Source of the DNA: Cellvibrionaceae bacterium
GTDB taxonomy: Bacteria > Pseudomonadota > Gammaproteobacteria > Pseudomonadales > Cellvibrionaceae
Direction: 5' to 3'
Assembly: GCA_050289485.1 (NCBI GenBank)
Contig: JBNKFV010000029.1
Span: 21,810-61,809 of the forward strand
Length of the DNA: 40,000 bases
Below, in pieces: positions 6,745 to 36,442 of the stretch. A program made the position numbers and the translations under genes. Numbering within the stretch: position 1 is the first letter of the stretch; every line of letters starts with the position of its first letter. The notes under the pieces are model-generated. The model searched no databases. It worked only from the letters and a program-made list of their open reading frames with translations, and was not told the origin of the DNA.

Positions 6745-7206
6745 CTAAAATATTTTGAAAATTTCTTTAAAGGTATCTTTGGTAAACACAGATTGCTTTT
6801 TCAGACCAACCACCCGAAAGTAGGTGACCACGTAATCGGCTGGGTCTACGTGGCAGTAGATGTAAGCGTTTTTGTATACCTGCAGGGTGCCTACATGGGC
6901 GAATAGGGTAACCAGGTACTCTTGACGGCGCTCTTCAAACCGTGATGAGTGCCAGTCGGTTTGCGTGCGCACCAGCTCGTTGCCCAAATTGAGTTTGGAT
7001 TTATCTTCACACACATCAATAGCGTCGTTCAGATCAAATGGAATATACGTAAAGTTGCGCCCAGCGAAGCGATCCACAGGCTTTGCCTTAGGCTGATAAT
7101 AGGTGGAAAAATACACCGTTAATGCGCTGGCTGAAATCACCATCGCCGCTGCAAGGCTTACGTATACACCGGTGGGCCAGTGCTGTGGATTCAACCAGCG
7201 AGGCAC
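6745..7206 (-). CDS. Hypothetical membrane-anchored protein, putatively controlled by a c-di-GMP riboswitch
   Basis: This is the only long ORF downstream of riboswitch A on the minus strand. The start is ambiguous: TTG at 7239 (ORF-track start), or GTG at 7206, which lies 4 nt after the stop of an 18-codon uORF. It has one hydrophobic anchor (GVYVSLAAAMVISASALTVYF). I recognise no family. Confidence 0.6.
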   Translation of the reverse strand: MPRWLNPQHWPTGVYVSLAAAMVISASALTVYFSTYYQPKAKPVDRFAGRNFTYIPFDLNDAIDVCEDKSKLNLGNELVRTQTDWHSSRFEERRQEYLVTLFAHVGTLQVYKNAYIYCHVDPADYVVTYFRVVGLKKQSVFTKDTFKEIFKIF

Positions 7207-7350
7207 GGTATTAGCCCTCAGCTGCCAGGCTGACCACAAGAAAAGAAGTGAGTAAACGTGTGTTCATGTTTGCCTACCACCTGTCAAAACAACATTAGCA
7301 TTGTGTTGAACCGGCAGTCGCTGCTCGCGGGCAGGTGTGGCCAGGCACAA

Positions 7351-7433
7351 CTCCATTCGGTAACCGTTCGACCCACCACATAGCGATGGGCACTGGCTTT
7401 GCGTCCCCGCGTTACCACGGGTTTGCCTTTTCG
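7351..7433 (-). promoter_or_regulatory. c-di-GMP-I (GEMM-I) riboswitch aptamer, copy A
   Basis: The minus strand reads CGAAAAGGCAAAC-CCCGUG-GUAA-CGCGGG-GACGCAAAGCC-AGUGCCCAUCGCUAUGUGGUGGGUCGAACGG-UUACCGAAUGGAG. All conserved GEMM-I blocks are present in the correct order: GGCAAAC, a GNRA-capped hairpin, GGGACGCAAAGCC, P2, GGUUACCGAWGG. Confidence 0.85.
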
Positions 7434-7604
7434 AGGAGCAGGCAGAGCCTTCTCATTCGAAAGTATTGCATGTAACTGGTTAAAAAGTGTGAACTAGAGC
7501 ACGCTCTGTGTCAATTGCTATGACAGCATTTTGCGCCAATTTTTGCCGATATTTTAGCCAGTGAGGTGCCTCAGGCTCCTAAACACTAGCTGTGGCTTTG
7601 TAGT

Positions 7605-10564: not shown

Positions 10565-10787
10565 GAAAATTACCTTGTTGCTGAAAAGGGGACTATACCT
10601 TGACTATTGGATTGAATCCGCGCACGTTAAGCCGCGCGAAAAAGGCGCGAATTATAATGGATTTTGCAGAGCGCGCCGCGGTTTTGCCAAGGCGTACGGG
10701 TAATTTTTCAGGTAGTTGTTGCACCTTACTTTAACGATGGTTAGTATTTTTGCATTGGAGTTGCGCGAGTGCTGCTATTGACAGGTC

Positions 10788-10815
10788 TCTCGCGTGTACT
10801 AAACTGTGCGCTCCG
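10788..10815 (+). promoter_or_regulatory. Candidate sigma70 promoter for the riboswitch B leader
   Basis: TTGACA (10788-10793), 16-nt spacer, TAAACT (10810-10815). This is about 75 nt upstream of the aptamer. Sequence match only. Confidence 0.4.
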
Positions 10816-10890
10816 TCACGATTGAGTGATGGCGTTCTGGCAGGTTTGATTCAACGGCCATCTGATACAAACCAGAGGGTATCTGCCCCG

Positions 10891-10967
10891 CGAACAGGCA
10901 AACTTGTGGTAACACAGGGACGCAAAGCCAGTGCCCAGTCTAATGGGTCGAACGGTTACCGAACGGG
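10891..10967 (+). promoter_or_regulatory. c-di-GMP-I (GEMM-I) riboswitch aptamer, copy B
   Basis: Reads CGAACAGGCAAAC-CUUGUG-GUAA-CACAGG-GACGCAAAGCC-AGUGCCCAGUCUAAUGGGUCGAACGG-UUACCGAACGGG. It has the same conserved blocks as copy A. It is followed by a GCGUCU/AGGCGC hairpin plus U-run (10964-10997) that overlaps the 3' side of the aptamer. Confidence 0.85.
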
Positions 10968-11008
10968 CGTCTGCTTCAATAGGCGCTTACACTTTTTAGT
11001 TGCGAGCG

Positions 11009-11494
11009 ATGACGTTGAAGCGAGATAAGTCTAATCCACGGTTAACCGTTGTCCGTGGGCAAGAGGCGAGCCAGACAACGCAGATTGGTGTTGCCGACCG
11101 GCGCAAAGACGTGCGCTATGTTGTGCAGTTGCCTGCGTGGATCCGCCTTGCGTCGGAATATGATCTGCCAGTGTCTGCCAGCAGTATGCCGGTGACTATC
11201 CCACCCCACGGTAGTGTCGTTAACCTATCCAGCTCTGGACTTTGTTGCATCGTGCCCTTTGAGCAGTTGGGCGATTTAATGCGTATTAAAAACAGAGCCG
11301 ACTGGCGCACCCTGTTACCCGTTGTTATTCGCTTTCAATTACCCGCAAAGCAACTGGTGTCTATTGTGTGTGGTGTTGCCTATGTGCGGCGGGCAAAGGT
11401 CGATCATGCCGAGGTGGGGGTATGTTTTCAGCAGTTTATAACGGGTGAGCAGCAGCTGGCTGAGTATATCGAACACCTTAAGCAACGTTTGTAG
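11009..11494 (+). CDS. PilZ-domain protein (c-di-GMP receptor type)
   Basis: Contains both halves of the PilZ binding signature: RRKDVR (RxxxR) and NLSSSG (D/NxSxxG). ATG at 11009 is preferred over the TTG at 11000, but the start is not well supported by an SD. Confidence 0.8.
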   Translation: MTLKRDKSNPRLTVVRGQEASQTTQIGVADRRKDVRYVVQLPAWIRLASEYDLPVSASSMPVTIPPHGSVVNLSSSGLCCIVPFEQLGDLMRIKNRADWRTLLPVVIRFQLPAKQLVSIVCGVAYVRRAKVDHAEVGVCFQQFITGEQQLAEYIEHLKQRL

Positions 11495-11551
11495 CGGGTC
11501 TTGTCGTTGCCGCCAGTTTTGTCACAGCGCTATCGTGCTATCGTTAGCCCT

Positions 11552-12148
11552 ATGAAAAACTCCTTATCCAATATTTCTCTTGTCGATGTGCTGACCGAAG
11601 CGCGTAACTGCCAGTTATGTCGTGATAGTTTGCCGTACGAACCCAATCCGGTAGTACGTGCTGCGCCGAGTGCGCGCCTGTTAATTGTGGGGCAGGCCCC
11701 TGGTTTGAAAGTACATAACAGTGGTATCCCATGGGATGACGCCTCGGGTGACCGCTTGCGGCACTGGCTGCAGCTAGATAAGGAGGCGTTTTATAACGAG
11801 ACAGATATCGCCATTATCCCTATGGCCTTCTGTTATCCAGGGCGTGGTAAAAGCGGCGATCTGCCGCCGCCCAAAGTGTGTGCGCCCCAGTGGCATTCAC
11901 GCTTGTTAGCGCAGTTACCTGAGCTGCGCCTGACCTTGCTGATTGGCCAGTATGCACAACAGTATTATTTGAATGACCGTTTCAAAACACTCACCGAACG
12001 GGTGCGTCACTGGCGGGAGGCTGGGCCTGCCTTGTTACCACTGGTACACCCATCACCACGCAATCAGTATTGGTTGCAACAAAATCCCTGGTTTGAGTCA
12101 GAGCTGCTACTGGATTTACGGGCTCGTGTTAAGCTGGCGCTTAAGTAA
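11552..12148 (+). CDS. Uracil-DNA glycosylase superfamily protein (GQAPG-motif type)
   Basis: ARLLIVGQAPGLKVHNSGIPWDDASGDRLRHWL resembles UDG-superfamily motif A, and a C-terminal HPSPRN resembles motif B. Four Cys residues (CQLC, FCYPG, VCAP) could bind an Fe-S cluster. The start could also be the TTG at 11501. Confidence 0.7.
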   Translation: MKNSLSNISLVDVLTEARNCQLCRDSLPYEPNPVVRAAPSARLLIVGQAPGLKVHNSGIPWDDASGDRLRHWLQLDKEAFYNETDIAIIPMAFCYPGRGKSGDLPPPKVCAPQWHSRLLAQLPELRLTLLIGQYAQQYYLNDRFKTLTERVRHWREAGPALLPLVHPSPRNQYWLQQNPWFESELLLDLRARVKLALK

Positions 12149-12163
12149 TAACGGACGTAGAGA

Positions 12164-12733
12164 ATGAGTAAAGTAAAAACCGGTGGCTGGGTATGCCACA
12201 GTAGTAAGGTAGTTTACGAAAACCCATGGATTCGTGTAAGTCATGAAGACGTTACCACACCCAAAGGCACGGCCAATATTTATGGTGTAGTACATTTTAA
12301 AAATGCCGCCGTGGGCGTAGTGCCGGTGGACAACGAAGGCTACACTTGGTTAGTGAAGCAAAGCCGTTACACATTGGATGCCTACACCTGGGAAATTCCC
12401 GAAGGCGGTAGCCCCGACGGTGAATCCACTGAAGCGACGGCGTTGCGAGAGTTGCAAGAAGAAGTGGGCTTGCAGGCTGAATCACTAGAACTCCTGCAGC
12501 GGCTGCACCTGTCGAATTCGGTTACTGATGAATACGGTGATATTTTTTTAGCGACAGGTTTGAGCGCCGTGCCTATGGCTCACGAAGACACAGAAGATAT
12601 TGAAGTGTTGCGATTACGGTTAACCGAGGCTATTGCCATGGTGCGTAAAGGTGAAATTACCGACGTGTTATCGGTAGCCGCATTGCTTGAGCTGGCTTTG
12701 CGTATTGCGGAAAACGGTGAGTTCTGGCGCTAA
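12164..12733 (+). CDS. Nudix hydrolase (ADP-ribose/nucleoside-diphosphate pyrophosphatase-like)
   Basis: Nudix box GGSPDGESTEATALRELQEEVGL (GX5EX7REUXEEXGU). It starts 15 nt after the preceding ORF. Confidence 0.85.
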   Translation: MSKVKTGGWVCHSSKVVYENPWIRVSHEDVTTPKGTANIYGVVHFKNAAVGVVPVDNEGYTWLVKQSRYTLDAYTWEIPEGGSPDGESTEATALRELQEEVGLQAESLELLQRLHLSNSVTDEYGDIFLATGLSAVPMAHEDTEDIEVLRLRLTEAIAMVRKGEITDVLSVAALLELALRIAENGEFWR

Positions 12734-13022: not shown

Positions 13023-13709
13023 CTATTCGTCGTCAGAATCATTGAATAAATGAAAAAGCGCATCTTTTTCATTTTGGTTTACGCTGGAGGTATCGTCTTT
13101 GCGGTGGGTTTTGGCATGGCAGACCTGGTTGCGCCCTTTATGTTTTGCTCGGTATAGCTGTTCATCGGCACGCTTGATCAGCGACTGAGCAGTGTCTTGA
13201 AACGGCTGTTGAAACACTGCTACCCCAATACTGGCCGTTACGGTTAAAGTCTTACCACTCTGGGTTATTACTGGTGTTTCCTTCAGCGTTGTGCGAATAC
13301 GCTCGGCAACTGTGAGACTGGTGAGTAAACTGGTGCCCGGCAAAATAATGGCAAACTCTTCACCCCCGTAACGGCAGGCGATATCGAGGCGGCGTATAGA
13401 AGCACGCAAAATATCGGCAGTATGCTGTAATACTTCGTTGCCGATGTCGTGCCCGTAGGTGTCGTTCACCGATTTGAAGTGGTCAAGATCGAGAAGAATA
13501 AGCGCCGTAGACTGGCCAGTACGCTGCGAACGTTCCAGCTCCTGCTCCAGCGCCTCGGTAAAGTAATGGAAGTTATGCAGATTGGTGAGTGCATCTGTAC
13601 CCACTTGCACTTTGAGCGCATCAACCTGGTTACGTAATGCGATTACTTTTGGTGGCCAGGGGCAGCGTTCACCTGCTGGACACTCTGATTCATTGCCGGG
13701 TTGATCCAC
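13023..13709 (-). CDS. GGDEF-domain diguanylate cyclase with intact I-site
   Basis: Active-site RYGGEEF with RRLD (RxxD) exactly 5 residues upstream. GTG start. The short Cys-containing N-terminus (ECPAGERCPWPP) precedes a coiled-coil-like segment. Confidence 0.85.
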   Translation of the reverse strand: MDQPGNESECPAGERCPWPPKVIALRNQVDALKVQVGTDALTNLHNFHYFTEALEQELERSQRTGQSTALILLDLDHFKSVNDTYGHDIGNEVLQHTADILRASIRRLDIACRYGGEEFAIILPGTSLLTSLTVAERIRTTLKETPVITQSGKTLTVTASIGVAVFQQPFQDTAQSLIKRADEQLYRAKHKGRNQVCHAKTHRKDDTSSVNQNEKDALFHLFNDSDDE

Positions 13710-13902: not shown

Positions 13903-14433
13903 GTGCCCTCTGTTCTTCGCCCCTCCATTATCGATGTTGAGGCCTCAGGGTTTGGCGTTCACAGTTATCCCATTGAAATAGGGGTGGTTACTGCGGCTGG
14001 AAAACGCTACTCGGCATTGATAAAGCCCATAAAGCGCTGGACTTACTGGTGCGATCAAGCTGAGGAGGTCCATGGTATTGGCCGTGATCTGTTGATGGCG
14101 CATGGGCGGCCCATTCAACAAGTGGCGCATGAGCTCAATACACTGCTGGGCCGGCAAACGGCGTATTCCGATGGCTGGGTGGTTGATGCACCGTGGATTG
14201 ATCAACTGTTCTATGAAGCGCGGGTTAGGCGAAGTTTCTATGTAAGCCCGCTGGAAGCTGTGCTATCGGAGGAGCAAATGGCAATATGGCATACCACCAA
14301 AGAGGCGTATCTGCACGACAGCGACTTGTCGCGTCACCGGGCCAGTCTCGATGCTTTGGTGATACAGGAAACCTATGTTAGAACACAGAGGGTGTTACAG
14401 AACTGTCACCCAAAACAGGCTGCTAAAGAATAA
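13903..14433 (+). CDS. DEDDh-type 3'-5' exonuclease family protein
   Basis: ExoI IDVEASGF (DxE), ExoII YSDGWVVDAPW, ExoIII HRASLDA (Hx4D). GTG start. Confidence 0.7.
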   Translation: MPSVLRPSIIDVEASGFGVHSYPIEIGVVTAAGKRYSALIKPIKRWTYWCDQAEEVHGIGRDLLMAHGRPIQQVAHELNTLLGRQTAYSDGWVVDAPWIDQLFYEARVRRSFYVSPLEAVLSEEQMAIWHTTKEAYLHDSDLSRHRASLDALVIQETYVRTQRVLQNCHPKQAAKE

Positions 14434-14721: not shown

Positions 14722-15660
14722 TCACTGAGTTCGTTTTGTTTGTTTCTGAATGTCAAGATCACTCATCAAGCGATTGCGGCCGCTCTCTTTGGCCAAATAC
14801 AGAAACCTATCCGCACGCTGAAGGGTTTCTTCTATATTGTTGTCTTCGGGCAGGGCGGCGGTTAGCCCAAGGCTTAGGGTAAGGTGTATGGGTTTGCCAT
14901 CGTGGCCCATAAAGGGGGTGTTGGCCACGGTATGGCGCAATCGTTCGGCGAATACCATGCCGCCTTCTACTGCTGTATCACTGCAGCACAACACAAACTC
15001 TTCGCCGCCAAAACGCGCAAAAATATCAGATTCACGTTTGTATTCCTGGCAGAGGTTACTGATTTCAGTCAGCACTTTGTCGCCAGACGCATGGCCATAT
15101 TGGTCATTAATACGTTTAAAGTGGTCAATATCAATCATCAGCAGGCACATTGGCCTGTCGTAGCGTTTGCTGCGCGCAAATTCGGCGTTGGCCAACTCAA
15201 AAAAATGCCTTCGGTTAAAGGCACCGGTAAGAGGGTCCTGTGCGGCCAGTGTTTTGAGCTGCTGATTAGTATCTTCCAGTTTTAGCTGCGATTCACGTAG
15301 CCGCAGGGCAGAGCGCACACGGGCTGCCAATATGGGATAAACAAAGGGTTTGGATACGTAGTCGTGTGCACCAAGATCCAGCGCCTCAACAATATCTTTC
15401 GTATCCTCGTTGGCAGAAACCATGATCACGGGAATGTCAGTATAAGCGGGGTTAGCGCGAATTTGCTTGAGGGTTTGTATGCCGTTCATTATCGGCATAA
15501 ACAGGTCTAACAGCACCAGGTCGGGTTGATGCTGCTCAATGGCCTTAAGGCATTGCTCACCGTTTTGTGCTGTATATACTTCGTAGCCTTCATCTTCCAG
15601 CTCAAAACTCAGTAGCTGCAGGTTATCTGCGATGTCGTCGACAATGAGTATTTTGGCCAT
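14722..15660 (-). CDS. Response regulator with GGDEF output (PleD/WspR-like diguanylate cyclase)
   Basis: N-terminal receiver (KILIVDD..DLVLLDLFMPIMNG..DYVSKP). C-terminal RFGGEEF with RESD (RxxD I-site) 5 residues upstream. Confidence 0.9.
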   Translation of the reverse strand: MAKILIVDDIADNLQLLSFELEDEGYEVYTAQNGEQCLKAIEQHQPDLVLLDLFMPIMNGIQTLKQIRANPAYTDIPVIMVSANEDTKDIVEALDLGAHDYVSKPFVYPILAARVRSALRLRESQLKLEDTNQQLKTLAAQDPLTGAFNRRHFFELANAEFARSKRYDRPMCLLMIDIDHFKRINDQYGHASGDKVLTEISNLCQEYKRESDIFARFGGEEFVLCCSDTAVEGGMVFAERLRHTVANTPFMGHDGKPIHLTLSLGLTAALPEDNNIEETLQRADRFLYLAKESGRNRLMSDLDIQKQTKRTQ

Positions 15661-18346: not shown

Positions 18347-19783
18347 GTGTGCCAGACATGGCATTTAACTAGAGAGGTGCAAGTCCTCTTACCAGGTATT
18401 CGCAGAGCCGAAGGTTAGCCAAAGGGCAAGGTTATTGCCGCGAGGTAATGGCTGAACCGAATCAAACCTCCTTGTTAATGCAACGTATCGTAGAAAGGAC
18501 AAACCTACAACGAGCATTAAAACAAGTTCAACGCAATAAAGGCGCCCCCGGTGTTGACGGTATGACGGTAAGCCAATTACCGAACTACCTAAAACAACAC
18601 TGGCCGCAACTGCGCGAGCAACTGGTTACGGGACGATACAAACCGCAACCGGTGAAACGCGTAGAAATTCCTAAAGCCAACGGCAAAATGCGTAAACTCG
18701 GGATACCTGCTGTGGTAGATCGATTTATACAGCAAGCCATCGCACAAGTACTCAGCGGGCACTGGGAAACCGTATTCCACCCGAACAGCTTTGGGTTTCA
18801 TCCCAACAAATCAGCACACCAAGCGATTCGAAGCGTGCAGCACTTTGCACGAGACGGGTATCGCATCGTGGTTGATCTGGATCTGGCGAGCTTCTTTGAC
18901 GAAGTGAACCACGATCGTTTAATGGCGACGCTCAAACGCACACACCCGGAAAACGATGTTCTACGGTTAATCAACCGTTACCTGAAAGCGCCAGTGCAAA
19001 TGCGCGATCAGAACGTAGCATCAACAAAAGGTGTCCCACAAGGTGGACCGCTATCCCCGTTGCTTGCCAATATTGTGCTTAACGAACTGGACTGGGAATT
19101 AGAGCAGCGACAGCTACGATTCGCACGCTACGCCGATGACTGCCAAATACTGGTGGGTAGTTATCGCGCTGGCGAACGTATCATGGCAAGCCTGACGCGC
19201 TTTATCGAGAAAACACTGAAGCTCAAAGTGAACGACGAGAAAAGCGCGGTGGCGGCGGTACATAAGCGAAACTTTCTGGGTTTTACGCTGGCCCGCAAGG
19301 ATAAGCGGATAAAAGTCAGCAAACAATCCCTCGCGAAATTGAAGGCAACGGTGCGTACTGTCACCCGCCGAACACGAGGCCATTCGTTTCAACACATCCT
19401 TGACGAGTTAAAGAAAAGCCTGCTTGGTTGGAAAGCGTACTTTGACATCAGCGAAGTACTGAGCCCTCTGAAAGATATGGACAAATGGATTCGGCGTAAA
19501 TTGCGGTGCTATCTATGGAAGCAGTGGGGAAGATCGGGCTATCGACGTTTAAGACGGTTAGGTGTTGATAGGCTGCTGGCCTGGAACACGGCTAAATCGG
19601 CCCACGGTCCTTGGCGTCTGAGCAAAAGCCCCGCGCTTTACTACGCGCTACCAAACAGATACTTTAGGAACTTGGGGCTGCCTGAATTGGCGACAAGGAC
19701 AAATTGATGATTTGAACCGCCGTGGTACGTGACCCGTATGCCCGGTGATGTGGGAGGAGAGGTGTCGTGAGGTGCCTCCCTAT
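18347..19783 (+). mobile_element. Group IIC intron (apparently with a truncated 5' ribozyme portion)
   Basis: The 5' end GUGUGCCAGACAUGG...GGUGCAAGUCC resembles the Oceanobacillus iheyensis IIC intron 5' end (GUGUGCCCGGCAUGG...GGUGAGAGUCC, recalled from memory). The 3' end GAACCGCCGUGGUACGUGACCCGUAUGCCCGGUGAUGUG is domain V-like with a CGC triad. It is followed by the domain VI hairpin GGGAGG..CCUCCCUAU. The element encloses an RT/maturase ORF. Confidence 0.75.
18448..19707 (+). CDS. Group II intron reverse transcriptase/maturase (no endonuclease domain)
   Basis: RT blocks: RNKGAPGVDGMT, RKLGIPAVVDRFIQQA, SFGFHPNKSAHQA, DLDLASFFDEVNHD, GVPQGGPLSPLLANIVLNELD, RYADDCQILV. The maturase X region is LLGWKAYFDIS..WIRRKLRCYLWKQW. 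The 419-aa size fits class C. Confidence 0.92.
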   Translation: MAEPNQTSLLMQRIVERTNLQRALKQVQRNKGAPGVDGMTVSQLPNYLKQHWPQLREQLVTGRYKPQPVKRVEIPKANGKMRKLGIPAVVDRFIQQAIAQVLSGHWETVFHPNSFGFHPNKSAHQAIRSVQHFARDGYRIVVDLDLASFFDEVNHDRLMATLKRTHPENDVLRLINRYLKAPVQMRDQNVASTKGVPQGGPLSPLLANIVLNELDWELEQRQLRFARYADDCQILVGSYRAGERIMASLTRFIEKTLKLKVNDEKSAVAAVHKRNFLGFTLARKDKRIKVSKQSLAKLKATVRTVTRRTRGHSFQHILDELKKSLLGWKAYFDISEVLSPLKDMDKWIRRKLRCYLWKQWGRSGYRRLRRLGVDRLLAWNTAKSAHGPWRLSKSPALYYALPNRYFRNLGLPELATRTN

Positions 19784-20356: not shown

Positions 20357-22261
20357 TTACAACTTTTTGATCTGAAATGGCAGTGCTGGCAAACCTGCGT
20401 CGTTATATAGATTGATAAGGGGGAAGTCGGCCCAGGCATATTTCAGCGCAGAAGGATGCGTTACTTTATCGCTCCAGACCTGAACGGTTTTACCCGTAAT
20501 CTTGGCCTTGGCAACATGGAAAATTCCATCTGGTCCGGCAATGATAAAGCCTCTTACCATAGTGCCTTCCTTGAGTTTCAGTTGCTTGCCAGCGTGGTCA
20601 AATGTTACAGAGACAACCTTGCCCCTAATGCTATGTGACCGATATGTGGGCCCCTGGCTTGAAACCTTTTCGTGAAAGCTGACTCGCCGGGCTTCGCCCC
20701 AAAGCCTTGCCGCGACATCCTGTTTGTTAAGCGGATGGATATTGTCCTGCTCACCAATATCAATGGCAGTAGCCATACCAGTCTCGGGTAGCGACAGTGC
20801 CTGGGCCTGCATATCCCGCAACAGCGCCCATTGGCTGTCAGGCTGTAAATCCTGGGCCTGTAAAAAGCCTGCCAGTTGAACGAATAAAAAGCTGAAGTTG
20901 TCCCGCCATTGTGTACGCCAGTCCTGGATCAGCATCGTGAATAAATCACCGTATTGAGCTGCTTGCCCAGTGTTGCTTTCGCCCTGGTACCAAATAACAC
21001 CGCGTAAACCGTAACCCTGTATAGGACGAATCATGGCGTTATATAAAAAGGAAGGTGTCCATTCAAAGCGCGTCGTTTCAGGCAGGGGCGGTTCTACTGT
21101 ATTGTTGTATAGCCAGTCGTCACTCAAATCAATTTTTTGGTCGCCAGTTTGCAGATATACCTTCCCTTCTATCCCTGCCGAGGGTTGGTTGTCCCAGGAG
21201 TCCCCAACGCGAATGGTTATCAGGTTTTGGCCTTTCTTTAATATGCCTGGTGCAAGAACATGGCGTGAGCCATGTGTCTTCCAGTCTTCCTGAGCAATCA
21301 GCTTTTCGTTAACCCAGATGAACGCTTCCTGCGAGAGATCACCAAATTCCAATATGGCTTCGTCTTTGTTGGCTGAATCGAGAGTAACTTCACGCCGTAA
21401 CCAGGCCTCGTCATCAAATGTTGTAGTGTTTGGCAGACGTTGTTTGGTCCAACCGTCCACGGGATAGTCAAAGCGGTAAGCCCCCGTCTTAAGTGCATCT
21501 TCTTTACTATTCAAGCGGCGATAGAATTCTTCTGCATTCTTGTCGTTTTCAGCAAGTAAAGTAGGCCAGTCGATATCACCTTTGTACAGTTGTTCTGTTT
21601 TTTCTCGGTAGGCGGGAAGTTTGAGTAATGCGCCTTTACTGAGCCAGGCTTCAGCCGGTGTGCCACCCCAGTTGTCATCGATTATGCCGACTGCGACGCC
21701 TTTTTCCTGATGGTTTTTTAGCGCAAACAGATAGGCTATGGCTGAAAAGTTAGCGGCGCTTTCGGGTGTCGCCTGCAACCAATTTCCATCAGAGAGATCT
21801 TGTTTTGGGGTTTCTGAAATTTTATTTTCAACTTCGAAAAAACGAATTAGCGGATAGTTGGCCTGTTTGATAATTTGATCTGAATGGTTAATTCCCCAGC
21901 CGAGTTTTAACTCCATGTTAGATTGGCCACCCGCTAGCCAGACATCACCAAAATAAACGTCATTTATCGTAGCCTTGCCATCACCATTGAGTTCCAATGT
22001 GTAGGGTCCGCTGGCTTTTTGTGGGGCTATTTCTATACGCCACTTACCCGTGCCATCACTTTTTCCAGAGAAGGTATGTTTGTTAAATGTCAGAGAGATG
22101 GCTTTGTCAGGTGTAGACCAGCCCCAAATCTCTACGGTCTTGTCTCGCTGCAATACCATGTGGTCAGAAAATATTTTCGCTGGTTGTATATCCGCTCGAG
22201 ATATACAGGCAAAGGGGATAAGAAGAGCACCCAAAATATACCGTTGAAAATGCACGCGCAC
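20357..22261 (-). CDS. Secreted sialate-O-acetylesterase-like (SASA/DUF303) carbohydrate acetylesterase
   Basis: GTG start with an AAGGAG SD. Signal peptide ILGALLIPFACISRA. SASA-type motif GDVWLAGGQSNME and the later GVIWYQGESN. Confidence 0.8.
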   Translation of the reverse strand: MRVHFQRYILGALLIPFACISRADIQPAKIFSDHMVLQRDKTVEIWGWSTPDKAISLTFNKHTFSGKSDGTGKWRIEIAPQKASGPYTLELNGDGKATINDVYFGDVWLAGGQSNMELKLGWGINHSDQIIKQANYPLIRFFEVENKISETPKQDLSDGNWLQATPESAANFSAIAYLFALKNHQEKGVAVGIIDDNWGGTPAEAWLSKGALLKLPAYREKTEQLYKGDIDWPTLLAENDKNAEEFYRRLNSKEDALKTGAYRFDYPVDGWTKQRLPNTTTFDDEAWLRREVTLDSANKDEAILEFGDLSQEAFIWVNEKLIAQEDWKTHGSRHVLAPGILKKGQNLITIRVGDSWDNQPSAGIEGKVYLQTGDQKIDLSDDWLYNNTVEPPLPETTRFEWTPSFLYNAMIRPIQGYGLRGVIWYQGESNTGQAAQYGDLFTMLIQDWRTQWRDNFSFLFVQLAGFLQAQDLQPDSQWALLRDMQAQALSLPETGMATAIDIGEQDNIHPLNKQDVAARLWGEARRVSFHEKVSSQGPTYRSHSIRGKVVSVTFDHAGKQLKLKEGTMVRGFIIAGPDGIFHVAKAKITGKTVQVWSDKVTHPSALKYAWADFPLINLYNDAGLPALPFQIKKL

Positions 22262-22310
22262 GTTGATACTCCTTGGTGAATGGTGGTTGGTGGAAGTTGT
22301 TTATATTCAG

Positions 22311-23924
22311 TTAAGCGAGTTCGGGTAAATGTTCCGTGCTCCTTGCCTGGCGCCGTTTGATCAGCTCCTGCTCTATGTGATTCATCCTCGATTCATTCAA
22401 TGGGTAAATCATCATTATAACGGCGGCACCGAAGGCAAAGCCTGCCGGGATCCAGCTCATGAGTAGTTTTAAGCCGGGAAGTGCCTGGATTGCTGTTGCT
22501 GGACTGCCGCCGTCATAACCGTAGGAAGCCAGCACCAGTAAAATTAATGCACCGCCAAAACCGCCGCCGGTTTTATTGATAAATGTGCCCGCGGAAAAAA
22601 AGAGTCCAGTTGCCCGGCGCTGGTTTTTCCACTCTGAAAAATCTGCCGCATCACTGAGCATGCTGAAGAATAATACTGGCATGATTGCGGCAAAAATTTC
22701 AGAAATACAGCCTAAAGAAAAAAGTAATGAGACCTGTTGTCGGTCGACGAGTGACAGGCATCCTGTGAATATTCCCCCTAAAAAAAGAGATGCGATGAAA
22801 AGGTTTTTCTTGCCAAATATTTTTACCAGGCATCCGGTAAATAACGCCGTAATCATTGAAACAATGAGTAAGGCTATAAAATAAAGCCCGGTTAACGTGT
22901 TGTTATCTATGGGAATGTCAAACCATAGGAATTTGAAATTCCACGGTTCAATTTGAATGAAATATTTGAAATAGTAAGCGATAGATCCTTGCTTTATGCC
23001 ATTAAACATCATAAACAGAAAGCCAATGGATAGCAGTACCCACCAGGGTTTGCTGGTAATTAAATCACGTATGTCGTGCTGCGTTCTGCCCAGCTCTGTT
23101 GCTGGCTTTTGTATTAGATGACGCGCAGAAAAAATAGTAATGCTTATTGCCGCTATAAAGAATAAGCCAGAATATATTTCGCGGTAGTAAAAAAATAACG
23201 TGATGGCTGAGAGCGGAAGTAAAATGAATAGAAGATTTAAGCACAGGTCTTTAAGATCATCGCCTAAACTCGTTTTTTCTAAGCGCTGAGGGATTACGCG
23301 TTCTTTTGTTGTAAAAAAAGTTATCAATAGAAGCGAGACCAAAAGGGCGGCAAACAAGTACATAGTATGTTGATAACCGACCTGCTCGTTACCTTCGCCA
23401 AAATACTCGACCAGCTTTGGTAGAAAGCCAGTAATTAATGCGCCGCCCATAAATGCACCAAAAAATCTCCAGCCAGATAATATGCTGCGTTCAGAATGGC
23501 TGGATGTCATGACACCCATTAACGCGGAGTAGGGAACATTATTGATGGTGTATGAAAGTGTTAATCCGATGTAAGTCGCGTAGGCCCATATTAACTTTCC
23601 CGTTTGGCCTAATTGCGGAGTGGAAAAGCTCAAGATCATAAACAGACCCAGGAGTGGCGCCGAGAATAATATCCAGGGGCGAAACTTGCCCCAACGGGTA
23701 TGGGTTCGATCGGCGATCATACCCATAATAATGTCGGTAATTCCGTCGGAAAGCCGTACCAGCAAAATTAATAATGACGCAGCGATCGCAGAAATTCCTA
23801 GCACGTCGGTGTAAAAAACAGCCAGGTAGGCCAGGGCGCCGCGCCATACTAGGTTGGCAGCTGCATCACCCATGGCATAGCCGAGCTTTTCCGTCATTGG
23901 GAGCTTTTGGTTGGTTTCGTTCAT
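22311..23924 (-). CDS. Glycoside-pentoside-hexuronide (GPH) family cation symporter
   Basis: The N-terminus EKLGYAMGDAAANLVWRGALAYLAVFYTDVLGISA is typical of MelB/XynP-type GPH transporters. The protein is polytopic and hydrophobic throughout. Confidence 0.85.
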   Translation of the reverse strand: MNETNQKLPMTEKLGYAMGDAAANLVWRGALAYLAVFYTDVLGISAIAASLLILLVRLSDGITDIIMGMIADRTHTRWGKFRPWILFSAPLLGLFMILSFSTPQLGQTGKLIWAYATYIGLTLSYTINNVPYSALMGVMTSSHSERSILSGWRFFGAFMGGALITGFLPKLVEYFGEGNEQVGYQHTMYLFAALLVSLLLITFFTTKERVIPQRLEKTSLGDDLKDLCLNLLFILLPLSAITLFFYYREIYSGLFFIAAISITIFSARHLIQKPATELGRTQHDIRDLITSKPWWVLLSIGFLFMMFNGIKQGSIAYYFKYFIQIEPWNFKFLWFDIPIDNNTLTGLYFIALLIVSMITALFTGCLVKIFGKKNLFIASLFLGGIFTGCLSLVDRQQVSLLFSLGCISEIFAAIMPVLFFSMLSDAADFSEWKNQRRATGLFFSAGTFINKTGGGFGGALILLVLASYGYDGGSPATAIQALPGLKLLMSWIPAGFAFGAAVIMMIYPLNESRMNHIEQELIKRRQARSTEHLPELA

Positions 23925-23969
23925 GACTATCTCAAGAGTTAAGGGTGAAACACTGAATACGAGTAAACA

Positions 23970-25358
23970 CTATTCGACGCTATTTTTTTCTATTAGATTT
24001 TGATACCAGCGTGCGCTGGCTTTTGGTGTTCGTTTCAATGTTTGATAGTCAACGTGGTGAATGCCAAAGCGCTTGGAATAACCCAAGGCCCACTCAAAGT
24101 TATCCATAAAGGACCAAAGAAAATAACCGCGCAGGTTTACACCACTTTGTATAGCTTCGTGGCAAGCTTTAAGGTAGCTACGGAAGAACGCTATCCGACG
24201 CTCGTCATTAACTTGACCATCAGTCACTTCATCGACAAAACTACAACCATTTTCGGTGATATAAATAGGAGGGTTGGCATAACGTTGAGCTAACCACTGT
24301 AACAGTTTTTTGCATCCCCAGGGCACAATGGCCCAGTCCATGCTGGTTAATTCCCAGTTGGGGTCTTGGGACAGCGTGACATCTTGATCGTCGCTCAATC
24401 CACCGTTGCCATATACTGTTTGCTCAGGGGTTTCTCCACGAGCATCTGCTGCATACAATGTGGTGTAATGATTTAAACCAAAGAAGTCGGATGAGTGCTG
24501 AATCAGTTTGCGTTGTTCTGGTGTAATGGTTGGCAAACGATTGCCAAGTCTTTTTTTCATCGTTGCTGGATAGTCACCCAAGTAGATAGGGTCAGCAAAC
24601 CAGCCAATAAAAAATTCCAGTGCTCTTGTCGCGGCGGTTTTGTCCTCTGCGCTGTCGGTGAGTGGTTCGCGCCAGTCGCAGTTATTGGTGATACCGATCA
24701 CCCCTTTTTGACGTGATTGAAACCGTTTGCGATAGACCTGCACGGCTTTGGCGTGGGCGAGTAGTAAATGGTGACCAACGAGGTAAGGTTCGGTGTTGGA
24801 TATTCGTCCCGGTGCAAAAACGCCTTGGCCGTAGCCTAAGATAGATACAACCCAGGCTTCGTTAATGGTAATCCAATGCTTAACCCGATCGCCGAGGTGT
24901 TCAAAACACACGGCAGCATAGTCAGCGAACAGGTCTGAAATCTGTTCATCTAACCAGCCACCAAATTCGGTTTCCAGGGCTTGAGGTAAATCCCAATGGT
25001 AAAGGGTAATCCACGGCTGGATATCGTTTTTGATGAGTTCGTCAACCAGGTCGGAGTAAAATTGCATGCCTGCAGCGTTGAAGCTATCGGTGTGGCCGCT
25101 CGGTAAAACACGTGGCCAGGAAATAGAAAAACGATAGGCTTTCACGCCCATTGTTTTCATTAACTGCACATCTTCCCGAAACCGATGGTAGTGATCGCAG
25201 GCTTTATTCCCGTTCTGGTTTTGATAGACCTTGCCGGGTAGTTGACAGAAGTTATCCCATATAGACGGACCTTTGCCATCGGCAGTACTGCCACCTTCTA
25301 TTTGGTAGGCTGAGGTGGCGGTTCCCCATATAAAATCATCTGGAAAAGTAGCAGGCAT
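23970..25358 (-). CDS. GH1 beta-glucosidase (cytoplasmic)
   Basis: FIWGTATSAYQIEG, acid/base region HWITINEAW, nucleophile region IYITENG. No signal peptide. Confidence 0.92.
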   Translation of the reverse strand: MPATFPDDFIWGTATSAYQIEGGSTADGKGPSIWDNFCQLPGKVYQNQNGNKACDHYHRFREDVQLMKTMGVKAYRFSISWPRVLPSGHTDSFNAAGMQFYSDLVDELIKNDIQPWITLYHWDLPQALETEFGGWLDEQISDLFADYAAVCFEHLGDRVKHWITINEAWVVSILGYGQGVFAPGRISNTEPYLVGHHLLLAHAKAVQVYRKRFQSRQKGVIGITNNCDWREPLTDSAEDKTAATRALEFFIGWFADPIYLGDYPATMKKRLGNRLPTITPEQRKLIQHSSDFFGLNHYTTLYAADARGETPEQTVYGNGGLSDDQDVTLSQDPNWELTSMDWAIVPWGCKKLLQWLAQRYANPPIYITENGCSFVDEVTDGQVNDERRIAFFRSYLKACHEAIQSGVNLRGYFLWSFMDNFEWALGYSKRFGIHHVDYQTLKRTPKASARWYQNLIEKNSVE

Positions 25359-25570
25359 AGATTCCTCGTTACAACAATGTAGGCGACTTAGTGAAAGTTA
25401 TCGGCATATCGTCTACCGGTTTTGCGACGGCGAATTATGGGGTCTAGCCACCACACCCGCAGCGAGTTCGATGATTGGCTTATTTTGGTTGGTAGTAGCT
25501 TGTGTGCCGATTCGAGTGGGTCATATGCTGCCTTTATTATCGAATAGAACGGCTTGGTAGCTGTTTGACG

Positions 25571-26065
25571 CTACTCGAATTTAATTCTGGTTATGTAGTA
25601 AGGCTTGGTTTCTGTCTCCATGCCTTGAATTATCACGCCGTCTATTATCGTGTTTTCAGCCCCAAGATCTTTTAAGGAGATCTCTGCCAGCGCCCAGTTT
25701 TTTTGCTGAAGTTCAATACGGTAGCCCGCTTCGATGGGCTTTTCATCCTGAGATAATTTGACCATCAGTTTTTGTCCACCATCGGCGCCTCCGTTGATAA
25801 CAAATGTCAACTTGCTAAAACCTTCGGTAGAAAACGGGTCATGGTGGAGGTATAGGGCTGTCCAGGGGGCGCCTTCCACTTTAATCGGTTGTGCATTGGC
25901 AATTGGGACAGACAGTGTGACTTTGGCCCAGCTCCAGTCAGACCAGTTATTTTTAAGTGCGTCGTCATATACGACAATAGGCGGTGTTAATGCTTCTGCA
26001 GAAGCAAAGCTAATGGATAGGCAGGCGAGCGCAGCAATTGCGTGAAGGGAAAGTTTAGACACCAT
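25571..26065 (-). CDS. Small secreted protein of unknown function (possible carbohydrate-binding beta-sandwich)
   Basis: ATG at 26065 gives the signal peptide MVSKLSLHAIAALACLSISFASA|EA. The mature part is about 140 aa and aromatic-rich (NNWSDWSWAKV). The upstream part of the 206-aa ORF lies in AT-rich intergenic DNA and is rejected. Confidence 0.6.
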   Translation of the reverse strand: MVSKLSLHAIAALACLSISFASAEALTPPIVVYDDALKNNWSDWSWAKVTLSVPIANAQPIKVEGAPWTALYLHHDPFSTEGFSKLTFVINGGADGGQKLMVKLSQDEKPIEAGYRIELQQKNWALAEISLKDLGAENTIIDGVIIQGMETETKPYYITRIKFE

Positions 26066-26220
26066 TTGCTCCTTAATTTTATTTTTACTTATAATATATA
26101 AAACAAATTTATTTAATCTATTATAGACAGGTAAGAAAGCAAATAAAACCACTAATTTGCCTTCGGTATTGATAGCGGATTGCCAGAGCAAAAACCTCAG
26201 GTTGTGGTACGCAGAGCTTG

Positions 26221-27726
26221 TTATGGATTGCCTTTTATTGAGGCCAGGAAGTCGGTATGTAGTGGTAGCGCCTGGGCTGCCTGTGCCGTTTGCTGGCGCA
26301 GCATGGCGAGAATCTCGCGTATTTTGTTGGGGTCGGTCTGGTCAACCAGGGCGCTATATCCCTCGGGGTAGATACCTTGGCCGAGCAGTACTGCCAGCCA
26401 GCTGGTTATTGAAAAGAGGTCTTCTTCCCGGCGTTTTAACTGGCCAGCTGCTCGAAACAAATTAACTTTGTTCTCCAGGCTGGGTGTGAAGCCAATAGTT
26501 TTACGTTCCTGCCAAAAGGGGTCGTTGTCTCTGTTATTAGCAGCATAATGCAGTATTAGAAAATCCCGGATATTTTCAATTTCTACCATTCCCATACGGT
26601 TGTATTGGTCAATCAAGGGTTGCTCGAAACGTCGTGACGGGAAAAGATTCAGCAACCTGCCAATGGCCGATTGAACAAGATGGATGCTGGTTGATTCAAG
26701 CGGTTCCAAAAAGCCAGAGGATAAGCCAATGGCAACGACGTTTTTTTCCCAGAGCTTATTTCTGCGCCCGGTAGTGAAGCGGATAAGGCGGGGATCGGCA
26801 AGTGGGGCTCCGTCGATTGCTGTCATCAAGGTTTGTTCAGCTTCACTGTCACTGATATGAGTGCTGGAATATACGTAGCCGTTACCGGTGCGATGCTGAA
26901 GTGGGATGCGCCATGTCCAGCCGGCGGCTTGCGCTGTGGATCGGGTATATGGAATCGGCTCTTCTATTTTGGCGGAAGGAACCGCTAGAGCGCTATTGCA
27001 GGGTAGCCAATGAGACCAGTCGGTGTAGCCAACCTTTAAGGTCTGTTCGATGAGCAGGCCCCGAAACCCAGAGCAGTCAATAAACAGATCTGCCTTCAGC
27101 GCGCGTCCGTCTTCCAGCACAACGTGAGTGACGTGCCCGCTATCCGAGTCCAGTTCGGCAGCGAGAACGCGTCCTTCATGGCGTGTGACCCCGCGCGCTT
27201 TTGCCAGATTACTGAGATAGGATGCGTAGAGCGAAGCATCAAAATGGAAGGCGTAGGACAAACGTGCCAGTGGGGAGGTGGCGGGCTGCTTGCCGGGGCG
27301 TGCAAAGCGCTTTGCGCGGGCGAGTTGTGCGTTAACACTGTAGTCGTCAATATCACCCGCGTATCCGTCATTGTTGGCTTTTAGCCAATAGTGGTGAAAA
27401 TCGGTGGCGTCGATGGGTACGCCATAGCTGCCGAAAGGGTGGAGATAACTATGGCCCTGGCGTTGCCAGTTCACAAACTCGATACCCAGTTTGTAAGTAG
27501 CCTCTGTGGCACGGACAAATTCATTCTCGTCGATGCCGAGCATACGGTTATAGGCCTGAATAGGGGGTATGGTTGCCTCGCCGACGCCGATAATGCCAAT
27601 TTCATCGGATTCCACCAGTTCAATTTTTACCGTTTTTAATATCGTCGCCATCGCGGCGGCGGTCATCCAGCCTGCGGTGCCGCCGCCAACAATCAGAATG
27701 TTGCGAATAGGTTCTTGTTGTGTCAT
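26221..27726 (-). CDS. Tryptophan-halogenase-family flavoprotein, paralog 1 (full motif set)
   Basis: GGGTAGW (GxGxxG), GVGEATIP, Lys79 in ATYKLGIEF, FIDCSGFRG, GWTWRIPLQ (WxWxIP), GFLEPLESTSI. Confidence 0.85.
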   Translation of the reverse strand: MTQQEPIRNILIVGGGTAGWMTAAAMATILKTVKIELVESDEIGIIGVGEATIPPIQAYNRMLGIDENEFVRATEATYKLGIEFVNWQRQGHSYLHPFGSYGVPIDATDFHHYWLKANNDGYAGDIDDYSVNAQLARAKRFARPGKQPATSPLARLSYAFHFDASLYASYLSNLAKARGVTRHEGRVLAAELDSDSGHVTHVVLEDGRALKADLFIDCSGFRGLLIEQTLKVGYTDWSHWLPCNSALAVPSAKIEEPIPYTRSTAQAAGWTWRIPLQHRTGNGYVYSSTHISDSEAEQTLMTAIDGAPLADPRLIRFTTGRRNKLWEKNVVAIGLSSGFLEPLESTSIHLVQSAIGRLLNLFPSRRFEQPLIDQYNRMGMVEIENIRDFLILHYAANNRDNDPFWQERKTIGFTPSLENKVNLFRAAGQLKRREEDLFSITSWLAVLLGQGIYPEGYSALVDQTDPNKIREILAMLRQQTAQAAQALPLHTDFLASIKGNP

Positions 27727-27745
27727 GGGTCTTTTCCGTTGGTTT

Positions 27746-29212
27746 TTATGCCTGGCTCTTGCTGGATGCTATTCGCGGGAGAGCGTCTGTGTAGGCCGGA
27801 CAGTCCTGAACCACCCTGTTTATACTTGCGCTGGATTGATTGAGAATGGCCCGTGATTGGGTTTTGTCAACGGCGTGGACCGCCGGATCCAGTCCGGTTG
27901 GTCGAAGGCCCAGACCGATCAGCGCGGCGCGCCAATTGTCGATAGTGATAGCGCTTTCCGCATAATGCGGCAGGCTGCCGCGCCGCAAAAACTGCTCTAA
28001 CCTGTGGGCCAGACTTTCCGGTGGCGGTGATTCTTGAGCCGCTCTCCACATTGGCCCCTCGGGTTGCCCCGAATGGCGGTAGTGCAAGGCGTGGAAATCA
28101 CGCATCACTGCATCGGCCAGAGCCGTGCGGCGGTTATATTCGGCAATCAGATTTGGTTGGCAATCGCGCCCTGGTAGTAGTTCAAGGGCGCGCAAAATAG
28201 ATTCGTGGGCGATCTGGAGCGTGCTTCCATAGAGGGGGCCGGGTGTTGCCGCAGCATCACCAAAGGCTACAACATTGTGCACCCAGCTGTTGGTGCGGCG
28301 GCCAGGCCGGAATGCCATCGCGTCCAGTTCGTCTGTGCGCAGACAGGCTGCTGCTGCGTTTTCGCTGGTGAAACTACTGTGGTAGTTAAAGCTGCTGTGC
28401 AGACCGTTCTGTCCCGGCATATTCCAGCGCCAGCCGTCGGGCAGCGCCGTGATCGTATCGATAAGGTCGGGCGGGCATTGTGTTCGCCGCTGGTCGAGTA
28501 GTTGTCGATCACAGGGGATCCACTGGCTCCAGTCTTCAAACTGGTCTTCCAGCGTCGACAGCAGAGGGGCTTGCGGGCCCGCGCAATCGAGGAACAGGTC
28601 GGCACTGAGTTGTTGTTGGTCGGAGAGAGTGATACTGGTTATTTTGCCGTCTGCGCTACGCGTTGTGCTCACCAGGGTTCCTGGAACAAATGTGATGCCT
28701 ACGTGCCGCGCCAGGGAAACCAGACGTTTCAGATACCCCTGCAGATTGAATCGCAGACTGTACTCTGATGCCAACAATGGTTTGAATCGGCCGGCGAGAG
28801 CCAGCGCGCCTGCAAGTGAGTGGGCGTGGTAGGGCGAACCTTCGTCTTCAAGTCGCAGCCAGTGTTGATGGAAGTGTGATTGCGCTACCGGTACGCCGTG
28901 TTTGCCATGGGTATATAGCCAGTCGCCGCCGGCCTGGTTCCAGTTTTTAAAGCGGGTGGCAAACCAATGACTGCCACCCGCGCGCTGAAACATACCGGCT
29001 TCGTCCATACCTATGCGCCGGTGAAACTGCAGAATTGATTGCGGCGCAACTTCCTGTCTGTCGGCCAGAGCCCCCGAGTGATTGGGTGTCACGACCACCT
29101 TGATCGGCGTGTTTGGTAGCGCGCGGCGAAAGGCTATCGCTGCTGACAGGCCAACAATGCCGGCGCCAAGAGTAACGATGGAGCGTAGAGGTTGCGGGGT
29201 TGGCAGGTTCAT
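27746..29212 (-). CDS. Tryptophan-halogenase-family flavoprotein, paralog 2 (degenerate catalytic residues)
   Basis: GAGIVGLSAA (GxGxxG). No GEATIP. Trp83 (SHWFATRF) aligns without gaps to the catalytic Lys of its neighbours. GWRWNMP replaces WxWxIP. PGPLYGST replaces EPLEST. Its start overlaps the paralog 3 stop by ATGA. Confidence 0.75.
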   Translation of the reverse strand: MNLPTPQPLRSIVTLGAGIVGLSAAIAFRRALPNTPIKVVVTPNHSGALADRQEVAPQSILQFHRRIGMDEAGMFQRAGGSHWFATRFKNWNQAGGDWLYTHGKHGVPVAQSHFHQHWLRLEDEGSPYHAHSLAGALALAGRFKPLLASEYSLRFNLQGYLKRLVSLARHVGITFVPGTLVSTTRSADGKITSITLSDQQQLSADLFLDCAGPQAPLLSTLEDQFEDWSQWIPCDRQLLDQRRTQCPPDLIDTITALPDGWRWNMPGQNGLHSSFNYHSSFTSENAAAACLRTDELDAMAFRPGRRTNSWVHNVVAFGDAAATPGPLYGSTLQIAHESILRALELLPGRDCQPNLIAEYNRRTALADAVMRDFHALHYRHSGQPEGPMWRAAQESPPPESLAHRLEQFLRRGSLPHYAESAITIDNWRAALIGLGLRPTGLDPAVHAVDKTQSRAILNQSSASINRVVQDCPAYTDALPRIASSKSQA

Positions 29213-30750: not shown

Positions 30751-31037
30751 TTCTTGATCACCTCGTTATGTCGTTATTTTAGTTCGGTAGTACGGGTGCT
30801 GCGCACATATATCATCCAGTCTCGGCGATATTCGTCAACCATTAAATTAAAACAATTTGTTTTTTTATTGAAAAGGGTCGCGTATGGAATTATATTGATT
30901 GGGCAAAGTGTTAAGGCTTTCTTCGGGTCAGGAGCACGAGGAAGGTTTGTCTGGTAGGGCGGTCGGACCCATTGATCGCAGTGTCTGCCAAGACCGACGC
31001 AAGAACATATTTATAAAAATAATCGGAGGAGGCGGTA

Positions 31038-34187: not shown

Positions 34188-34193
34188 TAAAGT

Positions 34194-34245
34194 GACCCCG
34201 GTTCGCTGTTGTAAGTGAGTCGGGGTCTATCTTGAGTTTTTTATT
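34194..34245 (+). terminator. Possible terminator after the TBDR gene
   Basis: GACCCCG-20 nt-CGGGGTC stem, followed after a gap by TTTTTTATTT. The long loop and the distant T-run make this weak. Confidence 0.35.
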
Positions 34246-34346
34246 TGGTAAGCCGAAAGGCTTTAACAAAACATACCTGCGCTATGTTTCTTGTAGCTTA
34301 GGCATGTACGCTTTTTATTTTCTTTTTGGTGTTAATAAGTTTTTGT

Positions 34347-36407: not shown

Positions 36408-36442
36408 TCTGCTGACGGAGCCGCAAGCCACTGGCATCAGTG

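Follow-up and report, generated by a model that had tools for sequence, protein, structure and literature searches.

A probable c-di-GMP-I riboswitch leader of a clade-specific stand-alone PilZ gene in a Cellvibrionaceae bacterium

We analysed a 40,000-nucleotide (nt) stretch of DNA from a Cellvibrionaceae bacterium (GenBank assembly GCA_050289485.1, contig JBNKFV010000029.1, positions 21,810 to 61,809; hereafter the window), in which a cyclic di-GMP (c-di-GMP) aptamer is followed on the same strand by genes for a PilZ-domain protein, a protein of the uracil-DNA glycosylase (UDG) superfamily and a Nudix hydrolase. An earlier note on this DNA had proposed that the riboswitch governs all three genes as one module. 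Our analysis points, with good though not full confidence, to a c-di-GMP-I (GEMM-I) riboswitch in the leader of a clade-specific stand-alone PilZ gene, with the UDG-like and Nudix genes being widespread genes that lie downstream of it.

The Rfam search placed a c-di-GMP-I aptamer (RF01051) on the forward strand at positions 10887-10963, close to the 10891-10967 given in the earlier note. The match covers the full model (1-87 of 87) and scores 53.4 bits, the gathering score being 35. Its E value is 7.9e-08 when the whole window is searched and 2e-09 within the local kilobase, where no other Rfam family reached E = 1. The closing helix P1 is formed in the window by CCCG (10887-10890) and CGGG (10964-10967). 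For four related aptamers (those before PilZ in the window and in the two orthologous loci, and a second one in the window), we counted paired alignment cells over the helices in the Rfam register plus P1. Results showed that 96.7% of the cells were paired, compared with at most 42% when the register was slid by 1-3 columns. Among 58 aptamers of the same subtype the paired fraction was 92.6%, and 10 pairs, including all five of P1, changed on both sides. The covariation score of this set was reached by none of 500 shuffles; the second hairpin is partly invariant in it because the search pattern had fixed that part. Judged by these pairing and covariation counts, the aptamer fold, P1 included, is well supported. 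Thermodynamic stability alone is uninformative for the leader, since a 131-nt leader segment folds no better than shuffled sequence (z = 0.13).

The base that precedes GCAAAC in the window aptamer is G (acaGGCAAAC), and both ACGCAAAGC and UUACCGAA are present and match the consensus. From the Vc2 structures, we take this G to be the mark of specificity for c-di-GMP rather than for cyclic AMP-GMP (c-AMP-GMP). In Vc2 numbering the ligand-contacting nucleotides are G20, A47 and C92, and the G20A variant senses c-AMP-GMP. About a dozen of the 58 aptamers (e.g. those of contigs L097, L102, L116, L125, L128 and L153) carry A instead of G before GCAAAC, presumably the change seen in c-AMP-GMP-sensing variants. 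The existence of c-AMP-GMP variants of GEMM-I has been documented (PMC7266159).

The gene directly behind the aptamer encodes a stand-alone PilZ-domain protein. Its PF07238 match spans profile positions 1-101 of 102 and exceeds the cut-off by a small margin. The start codon was set at ATG 11009, and not at TTG 11000, from a 161-amino-acid (aa) database entry and from the orthologue N-termini, which read M-x-x-K-K/R-D/G-K at the same place as that of the window protein. The RxxxR...NxSxxG signature, described as intact in the earlier note, is present as RRKDVR and NLSSSG and is conserved in the two orthologues; R31, R32, R36, S74 and G77 are invariant in the homologue alignment. An AlphaFold2 model, built on an alignment of only 4 sequences, reached a mean predicted local distance difference test (pLDDT) score of 72, with values of 80-93 over most of the barrel and low confidence for the first ~30 residues. 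The top Foldseek matches of this model were the PilZ domains of BcsA, MotI, VCA0042 and MapZ (E 7.5e-05 to 3e-03). On the combined evidence of Pfam score, binding motifs and predicted fold we assign the protein to the PilZ family. A word-indexed protein search with it retrieved only the query itself, and the PilZ alignment, run against JGI metagenome contigs, gave no relative. Exhaustive HMMER searching of 1.84 billion representatives yielded two true homologues, with 53% and 46% identity over the matched stretches. We conclude that the PilZ protein is real and, from these searches, very rare, its known relatives being confined to three lineages.

The contigs carrying the two homologues (L087; L088 and L089) share the neighbourhood of the window, namely gcvP on the opposite strand, PilZ, Nudix, a GGDEF gene and an open reading frame (ORF) of ~170 aa, and, where a homologue contig extends far enough, also the REC-GGDEF and DUF6231 genes. 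In both relatives a GEMM-I aptamer stands directly upstream of PilZ (59.1 and 57.8 bits in Rfam). The TTGACA-16-TAAACT promoter noticed earlier was located at 10778-10805, and sites at the aligned position read TTGACA-16-TAGACT in L087 and TTGACA-16-TAAACT in L088. Within 2.6 kb we found two promoter-like sites versus 2.8 expected by chance, and a single match is weak; the promoter is credible because the identically positioned site occurs in two orthologous loci, and not from the motif match alone. Transcription is presumed to start near 10812. As promoter, riboswitch, hairpin and PilZ all recur in the neighbourhood of both relatives, we regard them, on this comparison, as a conserved unit across three related lineages. 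The three-way alignment also revealed a conserved leader block, GCGTTCTGGCAGGTTTGATTC, between promoter and aptamer. The folds predict that GGCAGGU of this block pairs with AUCUGCC (10881-10887) immediately 5′ of P1; no covariation for this pairing was seen in the alignment of the window, L087 and L088. At the place of the predicted window hairpin at 10813-10832, the L087 and L088 leaders are predicted to form a different one, GUUC/GAAC.

A hairpin with a U-run behind the aptamer, also recognized in the earlier note, was recovered as a 9-pair stem at 10965-10988 followed by ACACTTTTTA. It was the only strong terminator-like site that the sequence scan detected near the aptamer; hairpin and U-run lie 11 nt before the PilZ start codon, in a leader of roughly 200 nt. 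The 5′ arm of the terminator has GGG in common with the 3′ strand of P1. When this strand was withheld in the folds, the hairpins of the window, L087 and L088, predicted at -10.5, -9.4 and -6.9 kcal/mol when whole, weakened to -4.6, -3.4 and -4.4 kcal/mol, respectively, and the foot of the terminator stem shifted away from the U-run. Single-sequence folds of L087 and L088 place a hairpin and U-run at the equivalent position directly 3′ of the aptamer, and in all three lineages the full terminator and P1 compete for the same bases.

These parts suggest a mechanism in which the sigma-70-type promoter at 10778-10805 would start a transcript whose leader folds into the GEMM-I aptamer, with the terminator-like hairpin following it. 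Without c-di-GMP the full hairpin would form and transcription would stop before PilZ. With c-di-GMP bound, P1 (CCCG/CGGG) would close and the terminator stem would lose the three foot bases next to the U-run; polymerase would then read through, so that the element would act as an ON switch and the PilZ receptor would be made only when c-di-GMP is present. Ligand binding is expected to be anti-terminating because the P1 3′ strand, the regulatory part of this subtype, belongs here to the terminator. The sequence of this strand is GGAG in most aptamers of the subtype, where it precedes an ATG by 3-8 nt and resembles a ribosome-binding site. In the 58-aptamer alignment, this arrangement suggests that most of them may be translational OFF switches hiding the ribosome-binding site.

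We favour the ON switch, with moderate confidence, over the OFF switch put forward earlier, which we consider possible and clearly less likely; some other mode of action is given a small chance. An OFF switch could be built from the same parts if the ligand-binding junction paired with the 5′ arm of the terminator as an antiterminator, and bound c-di-GMP locked the junction, letting the hairpin form and stop transcription before PilZ. Folds of truncated window leaders indeed predict AGGCA/UGCUU and GACGC/GCGUC pairings between the junction and the terminator 5′ arm, and in the nascent transcript, at 163-171 nt of the modelled leader, the fold with these pairings is more stable than the aptamer fold by ~3.8 kcal/mol. 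By inspection, the L088 aptamer has in its 5′ flank a CCGCGAA that is the complement of UUCGCGG in the terminator 3′ arm. However, the antiterminator was not predicted in L087 or L088, and the hairpin that is left once P1 closes, of only -3.4 to -4.6 kcal/mol and further from the U-run, would be a poor terminator for the ligand-bound state. The competition of P1 with the full terminator in all three lineages likewise speaks for the ON switch. Besides the truncated-leader folds, several observations weigh against the ON mechanism. The window terminator is weak, with four G-U pairs in its stem and ACAC separating the stem from the U-run, and in L088 the minimum-free-energy hairpin overlaps P1 by only 1-2 bases. 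The hairpins of the three lineages differ in register and loop length and are not aligned by MAFFT. Since RNAalifold found no common structure in the three terminator regions and the consensus terminator scan did not list the L087 and L088 hairpins, conservation of the terminator is read from single-sequence folds. A third reading, in which the aptamer no longer regulates and is decaying as a relic, seems to us barely credible. Positive evidence for it was not found, and it could appeal only to the fast evolution of PilZ, with 46% identity between lineages versus 72-74% for Nudix. Against it, the three lineages have nearly the same aptamer sequence within a flanking leader that diverges, each of the three aptamers scores 53-59 bits, and the helices are kept by compensatory changes.

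Pfam bore out the family assignments of all three downstream proteins made in the earlier note (Table 1). The GQAPG that had been noticed in the UDG-like protein is present, and the family alignment showed it to be invariant throughout the family. The nearest solved structure is 3IKB, an 'uncharacterized conserved protein'; with the UDG superfamily, specifically the 3IKB family, our protein shares the PF03167 domain, the motif-A-like GQAPG and HPSPRN. The family 4 and UdgX glycosylases (1UI0, 6AJO) are more distant. The family 4 cut-offs were missed by far, with 24.2 vs. 125.3 for TIGR00758 and 18.5 vs. 250 for NF040953. On these profile and structure comparisons we place the protein in the UDG superfamily, in the 3IKB family and not in family 4. 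It has Q in motif A at a position where, as we take it, family 4 has E, and its four invariant cysteines are presumably comparable to the cluster of the iron-sulphur family 4 enzymes. To our knowledge, no activity has been assigned to the 3IKB-type family, and a literature search on the GQAPG motif returned unrelated proteomics papers only. A tandem direct repeat, GCTATCGT GCTATCGT, was observed at 11529-11544, in the 57-nt spacer just before the UDG start. The Nudix protein contains a complete Nudix box, GGSPDGESTEATALRELQEEVGL, and, according to a precomputed record, the N-terminal NDPSase_N domain PF28549. Its best solved relatives are ADP-ribose pyrophosphatases (1MK1, 66.5 bits), which aligns it with the NudF/ADPRase type; it belongs to the Nudix superfamily but scores below the equivalog cut-off for E. 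coli NudE (NF008736, 71.3 vs. 169).

The three ORFs are closely spaced, as had been noted: 57 nt separate the PilZ stop from the UDG start (6 nt if TTG 11501 is used) and 15 nt the UDG stop from the Nudix start. In neither of these two gaps did the sequence scan detect a terminator-like site. The best internal promoter candidate, TTGCCG-18-TATCGT, matches 8 of 12 consensus positions, and the only promoter with 10 of 12 lies upstream of all three genes. As neither a terminator nor a good promoter stands between the genes, UDG and Nudix are probably reached by read-through; we hold read-through from the riboswitch promoter to be plausible and rather likely. Two observations count against carrying the riboswitch reading beyond PilZ: co-transcription of UDG and Nudix is deduced from spacing only, and the PilZ-Nudix gap of L087 contains a weak terminator-like hairpin.

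The proposal of the earlier note, that one riboswitch-controlled unit of PilZ, UDG and Nudix links c-di-GMP to base-excision repair, nucleotide-pool sanitation or turnover of a nucleotide signal, could draw on the common strand, the gaps of 57 and 15 nt, the lack of an internal terminator-like site, the sole good promoter upstream and the identity of the locus in several assemblies of the same species. The comparison with relatives made it highly improbable. Of the synteny, the riboswitch-PilZ and PilZ-Nudix parts are kept in both relatives and the UDG gene is missing from both: in L087 and L088, Nudix follows PilZ after 130-171 nt with no UDG gene between, and no UDG remnant was found in these gaps by tblastn. 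Since the sister lineages do without it, UDG is dispensable to the arrangement. Conversely, none of 80 genome loci carrying the UDG-like gene had a relative of the window PilZ or a GEMM-I pattern match. In 8 of these loci (L010, L015, L022, L033, L036, L037, L041 and L073) gcvP is the divergent neighbour of UDG at a distance of 100-170 nt, in the absence of any riboswitch, and in one (L034, Halioxenophilus) Nudix adjoins UDG; UDG and Nudix thus also occur elsewhere without PilZ or the riboswitch. Both enzymes come from very large families with other contexts. The UDG-like family has 8000 scored relatives, the nearest outside the species being ~65% identical; the Nudix family has more than 7500 relatives at E ≤ 1e-30, and the Nudix gene lies amid unrelated genes in Exilibacterium, Cellvibrio and a further lineage. 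We found no paper linking a c-di-GMP riboswitch with UDG or Nudix. The c-di-GMP-gated repair or nucleotide-pool sanitation proposed on this basis is left as speculation with no comparative support, and the tempting link between c-di-GMP and DNA repair loses support. The three genes were also considered as an anti-phage defence system and this candidate was rejected: PADLOC gave no match for PilZ or UDG, and that for Nudix was weak, covering only the Nudix-box region (candidate model PDC-S07, 23 bits).

A narrower proposal keeps PilZ and Nudix as a functional pair, with UDG as an inert passenger: PilZ would bind the pyrophosphatase and set its activity according to c-di-GMP. Nudix follows PilZ in all three lineages that have this PilZ, its orthologues in L087 and L088 being 72-74% identical to that of the window. 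PilZ proteins are known as adaptors for partner proteins, and the solved MapZ-CheR1 complex is among the structural matches of our model. We nevertheless consider such a pair unlikely. Synteny extends over the whole neighbourhood in the three lineages; that Nudix persists behind PilZ therefore shows no functional link per se, and the adjacency may be inherited gene order rather than the result of selection. Moreover, Nudix orthologues of ~65% identity are widespread without PilZ, and the 130-171-nt gaps in the relatives, together with the weak terminator-like site of L087, are unlike a tight operon. Still more doubtful is a two-layer device in which the RNA sensor would switch on PilZ and the c-di-GMP-loaded PilZ would control Nudix, perhaps along with a DEDDh exonuclease-like protein encoded nearby. 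If true, such a device would connect c-di-GMP with a pool of nucleotide sugars, ADP-ribose or linear dinucleotides.

In each of the four proteins compared (PilZ, Nudix, GGDEF and the 170-aa ORF), L087 resembles L088 more than either resembles the window. Because they are sisters relative to the window, a single event accounts for the difference in UDG. The most economical history would start from an old backbone of gcvP and UDG(-Nudix). The common ancestor of the three lineages would have received riboswitch-PilZ by insertion into the gcvP-UDG spacer, and UDG would then have been lost in the branch of L087 and L088. A block upstream of gcvP at 10643-10659, GGCGCGAATTATAATGG, resembles GGGCGCGATA(T/G)TA(G/T/C)CAG in the gcvP-UDG spacers of L010, L022, L033 and L036. 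By this likeness, the old spacer seems to have survived in its gcvP-proximal part, with riboswitch-PilZ inserted on the UDG side. The gcvP gene itself is ~60-65% identical to those of Cellvibrionales-type genomes.

Table 1. Coordinates of the features of the riboswitch-PilZ region and of the genes downstream, numbered from the first letter of the window.
Feature	Position	Strand	Evidence
Sigma-70-like promoter TTGACA-16-TAAACT	10778..10805	+	10/12 consensus positions
Predicted hairpin at 5′ end of leader, CCGUCAC/GUGAUGG	10813..10832	+	Minimum-free-energy fold; prediction only
Conserved leader block GCGTTCTGGCAGGTTTGATTC	10833..10852	+	Three-way alignment of window, L087 and L088
Aptamer: P1, GUAA-capped hairpin, GGACGCAAAGCC junction, second hairpin, GGUUACCGAA tail	10887..10967	+	RF01051 and pair counts
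Terminator-like hairpin GGGCGUCUG/UAGGCGCUU, then ACAC and UUUUU	10965..10997	+	Sequence scan and folds
Stand-alone PilZ-domain protein, 161 aa	11009..11494	+	PF07238, 25.2 bits vs. cut-off 22.5
UDG-superfamily protein, 198 aa	11552..12148	+	PF03167, 87.7 bits; GQAPG, HPSPRN, four invariant cysteines
Nudix hydrolase, ADP-ribose / NDP-sugar pyrophosphatase type, 189 aa	12164..12733	+	PF00293, 59.3 bits

Several other features of the window were recorded. The second c-di-GMP-I aptamer lies on the reverse strand at 7356-7437 (60.8 bits), downstream of gcvP and before ORF 6745-7239 (-), whose product, a small membrane protein, has no match in Pfam. This ORF was considered as a PilZ paralogue, both being listed with 164 codons among the raw ORFs; the candidate was rejected, the product being an unrelated membrane protein. 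Homologues of the membrane protein stand behind the same aptamer subtype in 8 metagenome contigs (L098, L099, L100, L106, L112, L126, L133 and L154), and the riboswitch with this membrane-protein family is a recurrent pairing. A 176-aa ORF at 13903-14433 (+) is located between the diguanylate cyclase genes 13023-13709 (-) and 14722-15660 (-), a placement kept in three lineages. It gave no match in Pfam or among solved structures, and it matches the DEDDh exonuclease model of PADLOC over its full length (34.3 bits, E 8e-09). We speculate that this DEDDh-like protein might degrade linear dinucleotides such as pGpG. An ORF at 18448-19707 (+) carries domains of a reverse transcriptase and of a group II intron maturase; in the whole window, no RNA family of group II introns attained the Rfam gathering score. 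The region 20357-39182 has the gene content of polysaccharide use, with glycosidases of glycoside hydrolase families GH1 and GH5, a SASA esterase, sugar transporters, a TonB-dependent receptor and two ROK proteins, and includes three tandem tryptophan-halogenase-like genes at 26221-30750 (-). Taken with the gcvP identities to Cellvibrionales-type genomes, this gene content suggests a marine gammaproteobacterium not yet in culture.

The pairing of a GEMM-I aptamer with a PilZ gene is not limited to the window and its two relatives. We looked at 55 genes that follow the subtype of the window aptamer in metagenome contigs; three of them encode an unrelated stand-alone PilZ. Rfam places the aptamer directly before these genes at 1375-1460 of L093 (61.2 bits), 6969-7043 of L103 (36.8 bits, a truncated aptamer) and 909-994 of L131 (59.4 bits). 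The three proteins score 26-57 bits with Pfam, are encoded on contigs of high G+C content and have no detectable sequence similarity to the window PilZ. Since an unrelated PilZ family has it too, the layered riboswitch-PilZ design has arisen more than once. Other genes behind the aptamer in contigs L090-L156 encode PAS proteins, lytic polysaccharide monooxygenase (LPMO)/chitin-binding proteins, cadherin-like adhesins, an SLT transglycosylase and a GGDEF-EAL protein; among products with no Pfam match, a protein of ~450-490 aa was found in 11 contigs and one of ~208 aa in 6. The window and its relatives probably offer a clear case, in three lineages, in which the making of a protein receptor for c-di-GMP is under the control of an RNA receptor for that messenger. 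An ON switch would mean that the protein receptor is made only with its ligand present, which amounts to a simple feed-forward gate. The riboswitch class, the PilZ domain and both enzyme superfamilies are already well known, and the case is useful rather than surprising to a specialist.

In its architecture the window element shares with the c-di-GMP-I class the GNRA-capped (GUAA) first hairpin, the ACGCAAAGC junction, the second hairpin and P1, the latter being very short here (3-4 pairs). We know of no described counterpart, among c-di-GMP-I riboswitches, of the conserved leader block 5′ of the aptamer. The closest parallel is Bc2 in the cap leader of Bacillus thuringiensis, a c-di-GMP-I riboswitch that experiments showed to be ON, whose terminator immediately precedes the ORF and yields terminated transcripts of ~121 nt (PMC4933901); as in Bc2, the window aptamer is directly followed by an intrinsic-terminator-like hairpin just before the ORF. 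Further c-di-GMP-I riboswitches are Vc2 and Vc1 of Vibrio cholerae (PMC4744006). Unlike the described examples, which precede genes for an adhesin, a chitin-binding protein, a tfoX-like protein and flagellar proteins, the window riboswitch precedes the gene of a PilZ receptor. Our literature search, which returned reviews and case studies only, found no description of a PilZ, UDG or Nudix gene under a c-di-GMP riboswitch. An RNA sensor placed ahead of a protein sensor for one messenger agrees with the published view that many of the genes associated with GEMM serve to make, degrade or signal through c-di-GMP (PMC7266159). With MapZ/PA4608, MotI/DgrA, BcsA, Alg44 and VCA0042 the window PilZ has in common RxxxR, (D/N)xSxxG and a predicted beta-barrel with a C-terminal helix; unlike these known receptors, it scores just above the Pfam cut-off and has sequence relatives in three lineages only.

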